14,128 nucleotides of DNA from a virus (Duplodnaviria > Heunggongvirae > Uroviricota > Caudoviricetes), in the IMG/VR virus record IMGVR_UViG_2778261228_000002, positions 1 through 14,128 of that record, one strand, 5' to 3'. Positions 1 to 3,000 of the stretch are shown in pieces. The position numbers are program-made. How positions within the stretch are numbered: position 1 is the first letter of the stretch; each line of letters begins with the position of its first letter.

Positions 1-3000
1 ACAAGTATCTTGAAGGTTCATTTCAATCATGTAATATGTACACCGGAGGTACATATTGTATGAAAGCGTATTGGGACTCTTTAACCAAAGAACAGCAGGG
101 CGAGTTGGCCGGAAAAGTTGGCTCAACTCCTGGCTACTTACGGCTGGTTTTCAATGGCTATAAAAAAGCCAGTTTTGTGCTGGCTAAAAAACTTGAGCAA
201 TGCACGTCAGGTGCAATTACGAAATCTGACTTAAGACCGGATATCTATCCGAAAGATTAGCAGAACACTTTCAATTTTTAACCACAGAACGATGAGGCTA
301 ATCGTGGGTAAGCATCACTGGAAAATAGAAAAACAGCCTGAGTGGTACGTGAAAGCTGTCAGAAAAACTATCGCGGCGTTGCCGGGTGGTTACGCTGAAG
401 CGGCTGACTGGCTCGATGTAACAGAAAACGCTTTATTCAACCGCCTTCGTGCAGATGGCGATCAGATTTTCCCGCTGGGATGGGCAATGGTTTTACAGCG
501 TGCTGGTGGCACTCACTTCATTGCTGATGCTGTGGCGCAGTCTGCAAATGGCGTCTTTGTGTCGCTTCCTGACGTCGAGGATGTGGACAACGCCGATATT
601 AACCAGCGTCTGCTGGAAGTCATTGAACAGATCGGCAGTTATTCAAAACAGATTCGTTCAGCAATCGAAGACGGTGTAGTGGAACCGCATGAGAAGACAG
701 CAATTAACGACGAGCTGTATCTCTCAATTTCGAAGCTGCAGGAGCATGCAGCACTGGTCTACAAAATCTTTTGCATTTCAGAAAGTAATGACGCCCGCGA
801 GTGTGCAGCTCCGGGCGTCGTGGCGTCGATTGCTTCTGGTTGTGGAGAAACTAACGCATGAACAGTTTAACAACACACTACCGTCGCTCGCAACTGATTG
901 CGCTTCCTGTACCGGGTGGAAAAGCGAAGGTGGAATATTGCTATGCAGTGAATGTACCAGGTGACAGGGAAATTGTAACCCACAGCTTTGCAGAGTGGGC
1001 TGTGGGGGATTTCAACCGGCAGAAGGAGACAGTCCTTTGCGACAAGTTAACCGCTGGTTCAAAGATCACTACGGAGTGCCCGTCAGAGTCATTCGTTGGG
1101 AACCGGAAACACAACGGGTTATCTACCTCCGCGAAGGCTATGAGCATGAGTGCTTCAGTCCGCTCGAACAGTTTCGTCGTAAATTCAGGGAAATAGAGGT
1201 CGGTCATGAGCACTAAATTAACCGGCTATGTATGGGATGGTTGCGCAGCGTCAGGCATGAAATTATCCAGCGTGGCAATTATGGCCCGCCTGGCTGATTT
1301 CAGTAATGACGAAGGTGTGTGCTGGCCATCGATTGAAACCATTGCCCGCCAGATTGGCGCGGGGATGAGTACCGTCAGAACGGCTATCGCACGGCTGGAA
1401 GCAGAAGGCTGGTTAACGCGTAAGGCGCGTCGCCAGGGTAACCGCAATGCGTCGAATGTTTATCAGCTTAACGTTGCGAAGCTTCAGGCAGCGGCATTTT
1501 CTCAACTGTCAGATTCTGACCCGTCAAAATCTGACGCATCAAAATCTGACCCGTCAAAATTTGATGCGTCGAAATCTGGCAAAAAAGCGGGTTTTCACCC
1601 GTCAGAATCTGGCGGGGATCCGTCAGTAAAATCAAAACATGATCCGTCAGATAAAAAACCTTCTCGTCCGGACTCTTCGCAACCGGACACGCAGACGGCT
1701 GAACAGGATTTTTTAACTCGCCATCCTGATGCGGTTGTATTCAGCCCTAAAAAGCGCCAGTGGGGGACGCAGGATGATTTGACCTGCGCACAGTGGCTCT
1801 GGAAAAAAATCATCGCCCTGTACGAGCATGCCGCCGAATGTGACGGCGAGGTGGTTCGTCCCAAAGAACCGAACTGGACAGCCTGGGCAAACGAAATTCG
1901 CCTGATGTGTGTGCAGGATGGTCGTACTCATAAACAAATCTGCGAGATGTACAGCCGCGTCAGTCGCGATCCGTTCTGGTGCCGTAACGTGCTCAGCCCG
2001 TCGAAGCTGCGGGAAAAATGGGATGAGCTTTCCCTGCGCTTATCGCCGTCCGTCAGCACGTACACCGAAAAACGCGAAGACCCGTACTTCAAAGCCAGTT
2101 ACGACAACGTGGACTACAGCCAGATCCCGGCAGGATTCAGGGGGTGATCATGAGTCTTTTGAATGACGTTCAGAAATTCATTGAAGCCCATCCGGGGTGT
2201 ACTTCCGGAGACATTGCGGATGCTTTTGCAGGTTACTCACGACAGCGCGTTCTGCAGTCAGCAAGCAAGTTACGTCAGAGTGGGCGTGTGGCTCACCGTT
2301 GTGAAGGGGATACACGCAGACATTTCCCGCGGCTGACTGAGATACCGCAGGAGCCGGAACCGCAACCAGTTCGTGAATCCAGACCTGTGCGCAATTTCTA
2401 TGTCGGCACTAACGATCCCCGGGTGATTTTGTGCCTGACCCGCCAGGCGGAAGAACTGGAGTCCAGGGGCTTATACCGTCGTGCTGCAACGGTGTGGATG
2501 GCGGCATTCCGTGAAAGCCACTCCCAGCAAGAGCGAAACAATTTTCTTGCGCGTCGTGAGCGGTGTTTACGGAAAAGCAGCAAGCGCGCTGCATCGGGTG
2601 AAGAGTGGTATCTGTCAGGGAATTACGTGGGGGCTTAATGAGTAATAAATATTGCCAGGCGCTGGTGGAGCTGCGGAACAAACCAGCCCATGAACTGAAG
2701 GAAGTGGGCGATCAGTGGCGCACGCCGGACAACATTTTCTGGGGAATTAACACCCTGTTTGGCCCGTTTGTTCTGGATCTGTTTACTGATGGTGATAACG
2801 CCAAATGCGCCGCGTATTACACTGCGGAAGACAACGCGCTGGCGCATGACTGGTCAGAACGTCTTGCGGAGCTTAAAGGTGCTGCCTTTGGTAATCCCCC
2901 GTACAGCCGCGCCAGTCAGCATGAGGGGCAATACATCACCGGCATGCGTTACATCATGAAGCATGCCAGTGCCATGCGTGATAAAGGCGGGCGCTATGTT

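Follow-up and report, generated by a model that had tools for sequence, protein, structure and literature searches.

A conserved array of palindromic iterons inside the initiator gene of a lambdoid prophage as a probable replication origin

Background

Does the repeat array that lies inside the replication initiator gene of a lambdoid prophage serve as an origin of replication, or is it there for another reason? The question is raised by a 14,128-nucleotide stretch of viral DNA (Caudoviricetes; IMG/VR record IMGVR_UViG_2778261228_000002, positions 1 to 14,128), referred to below in its entirety as the window. A first-pass annotation, made from the sequence alone, had placed an iteron array at 1506-1660, within the open reading frame (ORF) of a replication initiator, and had proposed it as the origin of a defective prophage after the model of ori-lambda in gene O. 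The array was found to be conserved as DNA and not as protein, which makes it very probable that it is a phage replication origin. With a probability of roughly 0.8, we regard 1508-1660 as the initiator-bound origin of a family of lambdoid phages that includes SfII, SfIV, PhiR29_1 and many enterobacterial prophages. Its design is the classic one of lambda and not a new kind of system.

The initiators concerned form more than 2,300 database clusters and are widespread in prophages of E. coli, Shigella, Salmonella and Klebsiella, so that a concrete origin candidate of about 150 base pairs (bp), together with an iteron consensus, is offered for a very common family. In the literature searched, which did not cover the SfV genome paper, no description of the origin of this family was found.

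Anatomy of the array

The features of the initiator gene that bear on the question are as follows (positions are those of the window; no strand is assigned to the repeat elements).

1206..2147, + strand, replication initiator gene, 313 amino acids (Pfam, PHROG, AlphaFold2, BLASTP)
1508..1580, no strand, five palindromic iterons of 13 bp each, repeating every 15 bp (repeat and motif searches)
1508-1520, iteron 1, GTCAGATTCTGAC
1523-1535, iteron 2, GTCAAAATCTGAC
1538-1550, iteron 3, ATCAAAATCTGAC
1553-1565, iteron 4, GTCAAAATTTGAT
1568-1580, iteron 5, GTCGAAATCTGGC
1581..1600, no strand, spacer with an A6 tract, AAAAAAGCGGGTTTTCACCC, from the array to the last iteron (sequence)
1598..1616, no strand, sixth iteron GTCAGAATCTGGC (1601-1613) inside the extended palindrome CCCGTCAGAATCTGGCGGG (motif search and silent-site conservation)
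1617..1660, no strand, candidate unwinding region with two GATCCGTCAG half-site repeats (exact repeats, stability, silent-site conservation)

Tandem Repeats Finder revealed a repeat of period 15 at 1515-1578 (4.3 copies, 81% matches) and also one of period 30 (88%), and a repeat search returned up to six in-register copies between 1494 and 1616, together with numerous short inverted repeats. The 15-bp unit consists of a 13-bp palindrome, GTCARAWTCTGAC, and a 2-bp spacer. Sites with no more than two mismatches to the palindrome start at 1508, 1523, 1538, 1553, 1568 and 1601, and the sole further site of this quality in the window is at 8387. At up to three mismatches, 28 matches were counted against 12.0 +/- 4.1 in shuffled sequences (none of 200 shuffles reached 28), and the core CARAWTCTG occurs nine times where 0.8 matches are expected. 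Two of the core matches, at 8898 and 8944, fall in an intergenic region that is unrelated and seem fortuitous.

The sixth iteron, the best conserved of the sites, starts 33 bp after the start of the fifth; in many homologues this gap is 48 bp. It is followed directly by two exact copies of GATCCGTCAG (1617-1626 and 1641-1650, 24 bp apart), in each of which the left half of the palindrome comes after a Dam site (GATC). The first copy continues into TAAAATCAAAACAT and the second into ATAAAAAA. Directly 3' of the last iteron is the least stable 30-mer of the gene (1627-1656), which ranks among the top 2% for the window; it begins past the first GATCCGTCAG repeat and covers the second. The AT content of the 44-bp segment is 64%, compared with 47% for the whole gene.

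The array is in frame and encodes (S/P/A)-S-K-S-D pentapeptides. The six palindromes at 1508-1613 code for residues 101-136, in a linker predicted to be disordered, and nucleotides 1508-1660, which take in the GATC element as well, correspond to residues 101-152, nearly all within that predicted linker (103-161). The first-pass annotation was therefore sound as to the anatomy: its tandem 15-bp repeats are recovered both by Tandem Repeats Finder and as palindrome sites, its degenerate copies are the two half-sites at 1617 and 1641, its A-rich tracts are present at 1581-1586 and 1652-1657, the DNA period does equal a five-residue protein repeat, and its coordinates were accurate.

The initiator protein

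That the ORF encodes a replication initiator is indicated by a full-length match to phrog_391, 'replication initiation O-like' (E 4e-135), and by a C-terminal domain homologous to the P-binding domain of lambda O (BLASTP: 31% identity over 216 amino acids, E 3e-26; tblastn: 39% identity at residues 166-277). An AlphaFold2 model built from 27 homologues (mean predicted local distance difference test score, pLDDT, 67.6) divides the protein into a winged helix-turn-helix (residues 1-102), a disordered linker (103-161, pLDDT below 50), a confidently modelled helical C-terminal domain (162-283) and a disordered tail (284-313). On this model the linker would be the region where the protein tolerates a sequence imposed by the DNA.

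The N-terminal domain lies outside the lambda O family. The BLASTP alignment with lambda O begins only at residue 70, and the Pfam scan of the initiator gave no match to the Phage_rep_O model. Residues 23-70 match HTH_36 (PF13730; E 4e-11, 42.9 bits against a cut-off of 25), with weaker Pfam matches of the N-terminus to GntR, MarR-like and, weakly, DnaD_N families. The top Foldseek matches of the domain are winged helices of the MarR/ArsR type, all weak and none at E <= 0.001, and among solved structures the matches by sequence are to MarR proteins only and are likewise weak. The palindromic form of the sites is consistent with a dimeric winged-helix binder.

Conservation of the array as DNA

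The array was compared in four phage homologues and in 80 loci taken from one-genome-per-species contigs, mostly from many genera of Enterobacterales; about 75 homologues entered the silent-site analysis and 78 homologous genes the spacing counts. An array of the S-K-S-D type follows the N-terminal domain in every full-gene locus, the exceptions being a few truncated or fused copies. Array and domain are inherited together.

Silent sites were examined in 2,186 pairs whose N-terminal domains are less than 85% identical as protein, as the fraction of identical codons at identical residues, the columns being anchored by the protein pattern and not by the DNA motif. This fraction averages 0.87 for the 25 codons around the sixth site and the GATC repeats, whereas the 86 columns taken from the N-terminal domain average 0.40 (Mann-Whitney p 1e-12). 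Within the sixth site of divergent homologues, the silent bases at -3, 0 and +3 from the centre are fixed (TCA 1.00, GAA 1.00, TCT 0.93) and those at -6 and +6 are free (CCG 0.65, GGC 0.34), a pattern which is symmetric about the centre of the palindrome and not codon-periodic. Silent-site identity is 0.8-1.0 throughout the GATC-repeat region, where the Asp codon of the two GATC sites is GAT in 75/75 and 64/64 homologues; elsewhere about half of the Asp codons are GAT. The window as a whole is not enriched in GATC; what stands out is the pair of sites in the candidate origin.

Codon choice in the linker is extreme. Its Ser codons are TCA or TCT in 84% of cases, compared with 26% elsewhere in the same genes, and its Lys codons are AAA in 96% compared with 62%; the Ser codon moreover depends on position, TCA standing before Lys or Glu and TCT before Asp or Gly. 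Nearly all core sites (338/340) fall within codons 90-190 of the homologous genes. Two of these 338, in phiP27 (L086) and in locus L156, are shifted by one base into another frame, and the out-of-frame full sites, TTGACCCTTCAGAATCTGG and TTCACCCGTCAGAATCTGAC, encode TLQNL and TRQNL, not DPSES.

Three loci (L157, L163 and L165) have as their site a 17-bp palindrome, CCTCCAGAWTCTGGAGG, perfect in several copies, in which both halves have changed together; the same three differ at residues 58-59 of the recognition helix. The linkers of L163 (1786-2025) and L165 are built of 33-bp repeats encoding EPPVFRATSGL, flanked by perfect 17-bp palindromes, CCTCCAGAATCTGGAGG or CCTCCAGATTCTGGAGG; the unit length differs in these arrays and the core palindrome is the same. 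Across the family, Arg-Thr at residues 58-59 goes with GTCARA half-sites (outer base T in 53-100% by group, and in 80-90% in the larger groups), and lineages with Tyr-Gly, Arg-Gly or Ile-Thr have TCCARA in 67-75%. A site logo of marked mirror symmetry (r = 0.95) was discounted as independent evidence, since the sites had been chosen with a symmetric pattern.

These comparisons show selection on the DNA sequence itself, across many enterobacterial genera, and the segment is almost certainly a cis-acting DNA element. The first-pass annotation had named a lack of DNA-level conservation of the repeats in homologues as grounds for refutation; the opposite was observed, with high silent identity, extreme codon choice and an out-of-frame copy. 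The gene also offers a clean example of a DNA signal that overrides codon choice.

Copy number, spacing and modularity

Each gene contains 4 to 11 recognisable sites, and their number changes only in whole units. Successive sites in the 78 genes are 15 bp apart in 278/371 intervals, 48 bp apart in 58 and 33 bp apart in 19, the family pattern being an array at 15-bp spacing and then one separated site. A comparison of repeat number among related prophages, as had been suggested in the first pass, gave five array units in 80/81 close relatives (>=97% protein identity); the other, L075, has a sixth unit of exactly 15 bp.

Similarity by tblastn to phiNP and YeP3 ends at residue 137, and that to phiP27 at residue 100. 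A Pfam search of representatives assigned the C-terminal domains to a lambda-O-like type (the window, Klebsiella phage 1), a Phg_2220_C type (phiNP, YeP3) and a phiP27 type, whose initiator gene is followed by DnaC-like and DnaB genes. Single-linkage clustering of the C-terminal domains gave no useful grouping, since the tails they have in common drew all of them together. The N-terminal domain and the array form one module that is joined to differing C-terminal domains. In lambda, the N-terminal domain and the iterons set origin specificity and the C-terminal domain sets the helicase-loading partner, a split which the modularity of this family mirrors.

Two E. coli chromosomal loci (L141 and L164, match at 1501-1737) have the first 79 residues of the initiator, 99% identical, fused in frame to another protein, with the iteron array deleted. 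The fusion partner looks like a terminase large subunit, and the arrangement resembles the YmfN fusion of e14.

A search of plasmids for a natural mini-replicon yielded mostly prophages in large replicons, and two circles of about 15-16 kb from PLSDB with related N-terminal domains, which are no proof of autonomous replication (L170, OR902851.1, 15,193 bp; L171, NZ_CP148542.1, 15,977 bp). One of the circles looks like excised e14, with an icd fragment, mcrA, an invertase and a truncated initiator. The other, a lambdoid fragment, carries cro/cI, an initiator that lacks annotation, a gene for an 'ATP-binding protein' just downstream, Q and lysis genes; the 'ATP-binding protein' is possibly a loader of the DnaC type.

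Proposed mechanism and alternatives

In the proposed mechanism, dimers of the N-terminal winged-helix domain would bind the 13-bp palindromes, GTCARAWTCTGAC, the targets being the five sites at 15-bp spacing and the best-conserved sixth; indirect support for such binding comes from the joint inheritance of domain and array and from the covariation of recognition helix and half-site. By analogy with lambda, the packed nucleoprotein complex would distort the DNA, and the low-stability segment 1617-1660 would open. The lambda-O-like C-terminal domain and the tail would then recruit the host DnaB helicase machinery, a role assigned to the host because the phage encodes no P, DnaC or DnaB adjoining the initiator.

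Several points weigh against an origin at this place. No experimental binding or origin firing, in this phage or in relatives, is reported in the literature searched. The centre-to-centre distance of 15 bp leaves only 2 bp between 13-bp sites, and simultaneous occupancy of all sites is in doubt. The segment 1617-1660 is only moderately AT-rich, and as an unwinding feature it is therefore weaker than that of lambda. There are no DnaA boxes near the array, the sole one in the window being far off at 9802, and no sigma-70-like promoters were found in 1-3400. The covariation of recognition helix and half-site involves only 3-4 lineages and is suggestive only. Lastly, the array is predicted to fold in messenger RNA (mRNA) with -53 kcal/mol (z = -6.0; 0/200 shuffles fold as well), which gives a role at the RNA level a small remaining probability.

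Regulation is the alternative that survives best, unlikely as it is: the palindromes would bind the initiator or another phage regulator for regulation and not for initiation, and the DNA would open elsewhere. Examples would be autorepression, a roadblock of rightward transcription, and control of copy number through pairing of arrays. Constraint at the DNA level and palindromic form are evidence of protein binding only, the AT richness of the adjacent segment is modest, and winged helices of the MarR/ArsR type are typically repressors. However, the protein belongs to initiator families and has a C-terminal domain of the lambda O type, the position of the array is identical to that of ori-lambda, and a conserved GATC element of low stability stands immediately after the last site. 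Nor did Tandem Repeats Finder and the palindrome search find in the 14-kb window any other repeat cluster able to be an origin.

A role in mRNA, in which a stable structure of the self-complementary repeats would modulate translation or decay of the initiator message or would pause ribosomes, is very improbable. The stability of the predicted fold speaks for it, but such stability is automatic for any array of DNA palindromes, and a 13-bp palindrome with a one-base centre can form no hairpin of its own. The number of sites (4-11) and their spacing vary between homologues, and therefore no single fold is conserved; there is also no Rfam family at the array.

The protein itself offers the last and least credible explanation, largely refuted by the codon comparisons, according to which the repeats are a flexible linker rich in Ser, Asp and Lys that arose by replication slippage and has no role in cis, their likeness as DNA reflecting recent duplication and common descent: the 15-bp period of five codons, the predicted disorder and a copy number that varies as slippage predicts all agree with it, but silent sites are far more conserved here than in the structured domain next to the linker in these genes, Ser codon choice depends on position, an out-of-frame copy encodes different residues, and silent bases are fixed within the palindrome and free at +/-6.

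Comparison with other origins

The replication origin proposed here has its closest counterpart in ori-lambda, in gene O of lambda and in its relatives 434, 21, phi80 (gene 15) and the Shiga toxin (Stx) phages such as 933W, which likewise lies inside the initiator gene. The order of a DNA-binding domain, repeats in the linker and a C-terminal domain is shared, as is the presence of several imperfect palindromic iterons; after these comes a less stable, A-rich segment in lambda, and a candidate for such a segment in the window. The four iterons of lambda O stand just upstream of the homologous C-terminal domain, at spacings of 20, 24 and 23 bp, and the parallel proposed at the outset holds good, the array of the window occupying the same place, after the DNA-binding domain and before the homologous C-terminal domain. 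Homology of the latter extends to phi80 gene 15. Iteron number varies among the ori-lambda relatives, as it does in the present family, from 4 in lambda to 6 in Stx phages (PMC7466680).

The differences from lambda are nevertheless several. The N-terminal domain is an HTH_36 winged helix with no Phage_rep_O match, and the iterons are 13 bp long at 15 bp, whereas those of ori-lambda are 19 bp long at 20-24 bp. A separate, highly conserved sixth site and then two GATC-bearing half-sites are present in addition, and DnaA boxes are lacking. The initiator ends in a tail like that of DnaT, and it is followed not by a P gene but by genes for a PerC-like protein and a Dam methylase.

Arrays of initiator-binding repeats adjoining an AT-rich region are also found in the iteron plasmid origins (P1 oriR, pSC101, R6K, RK2). 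In P1 oriR, the unwinding region contains repeats with GATC, and Dam methylation is needed; the two invariant GATC half-sites of the window resemble these repeats. Plasmid iterons, however, are direct repeats of 17-22 bp, about two helical turns (phasing of ~22 bp), bound by Rep monomers of the WH1-WH2 (two winged-helix domains) kind and usually accompanied by DnaA boxes, whereas the sites of the window are palindromes at 15 bp with no DnaA box near the array. The initiator likewise differs from plasmid Rep in having a single winged helix and a C-terminal domain of the lambda O type.

Other HTH_36 initiators (phrog_391), among them phiP27 L17, SfII gp41 and the 'primosomal protein I' of Klebsiella phage 1 LV-2017, share this N-terminal domain and have an internal array of the same kind. 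The annotations of such proteins go no further than 'helix-turn-helix domain-containing protein', 'O protein family' or 'primosomal protein'.

The DnaT-like tail and the Dam methylase

Two further features of the locus concern the loading of the helicase and the GATC sites.

2118..2144, + strand, C-terminal peptide of the initiator, SQIPAGFRG (8/9 identical to the end of E. coli DnaT)
2638..3291, + strand, N6-adenine (Dam-type) methyltransferase gene (Pfam Dam, E 1e-45; RefSeq annotation)

The last nine residues of the initiator, SQIPAGFRG, compare with SQIPPGFRG in DnaT (L167:1979-2518, E. coli dnaT). Tails of the form (I/V)PxGFR(G/S) or LPENxGFR(S/T) end many homologues, including those of the Phg_2220_C type such as phiNP, and residues 281-313, taken by themselves, give matches to 'replication proteins' of phages cdtI, mEp460 and PhiR40_1. 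The peptide may be a docking motif for host replication proteins in initiators that have no helicase loader of their own; no definition of the role of the DnaT C-terminal tail was found in the literature searched. No P, DnaC or DnaB family was matched among the window ORFs scanned, and none is annotated in the near-identical region of avian pathogenic E. coli (APEC) strain E19057. A DnaC-like gene lies downstream of the initiator in 8/78 relatives.

A homologue of the adenine methyltransferase is found just downstream of the initiator in at least 39/78 related loci. The phage Dam methylase possibly acts on the two origin GATC sites, and the origin may be sensitive to methylation. Taken together, the DnaT-like tail, the invariant GATC sites and the adjacent Dam gene suggest, speculatively, a variant of the lambda system that needs no loader and responds to methylation, in which the tail, (I/V)PxGFRG, would dock on host DnaB-DnaC or on the restart primosome, and firing would be gated by phage Dam methylation of the two GATC half-sites. 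We put this forward tentatively and consider it on balance doubtful. The combination of tail and methylation is not known to have been described for lambdoid phages, and the two observations could account for the loading of the host helicase in those lambdoid phages that have no P gene.

The element carries two methyltransferases, the gene for a second DNA methylase (7123-8214, + strand; Pfam N6_N4_Mtase, E 5e-42) being situated after the Q antiterminator region and before the lysis genes.

Prophage context

The window represents the early-to-late region of a lambdoid prophage. APEC O78:H4 chromosomes match 92% of its length with 100% identity, and the prophage of strain E19057 occupies the argU/intD site. 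Positions 1-4000 are 99.7% identical to PhiR29_1 and 97% identical to Shigella phages SfII and SfIV (for 1-3822 and PhiR29_1 the value is 99.8%), and the initiator gene is also carried by viable phages (PhiR29_1 at 99.7% DNA identity, SfII and SfIV at 97%). The genes are arranged in the order cro-like, cII-like (YmfL), YmfM, initiator, PerC-like, Dam methylase and LexA-like. The remaining features noted are as follows.

2144..2638, PerC-like gene (Pfam and annotation)
11710-12276, truncated major capsid gene (Phage_cap_E profile positions 147-328 of 329)
12279-12713, FI gene
12788-14128, tail-fibre gene

Beyond the lysis genes and a Bor/Iss gene, the sequence passes abruptly, at 11710, to the latter half of the gene for the major capsid protein. 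The prophage is judged defective for particle assembly because this gene is truncated and the terminase, the portal and most head and tail genes are missing from the window, in keeping with what had been supposed of it. The origin candidate helps to judge if a defective prophage, once induced, is still able to replicate in place, which would amplify neighbouring genes; the iss serum-survival gene is on the same element.

Just upstream of the initiator is the frame of YmfM (858-1196; 112 amino acids, phrog_1170, E 6e-70). A DUF4222 protein of 59 amino acids (1037-1216) overlaps both the YmfM frame and the initiator start, and annotations differ between records. In related phages the LexA-like gene is followed by a RusA gene, which the window has lost: about 760 bp present in PhiR29_1 and APEC E19057 are absent at about 3817-3822, and with them most of the RusA and KilA-N genes. 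Given this deletion, ORF 3611..4054 looks like a fusion remnant.

An intergenic segment upstream of the lysis genes (8626-8814, + strand) gives a full-length match to the Rfam small RNA STnc100 (114.5 bits; gathering score 47). At 8459-8494 there is a terminator-like hairpin, CTGTCAGATTAGCGCGATAATCTGACAG, with a run of T after it; the arms of its stem contain the iteron half-site GTCAGA/TCTGAC, which is probably a coincidence.

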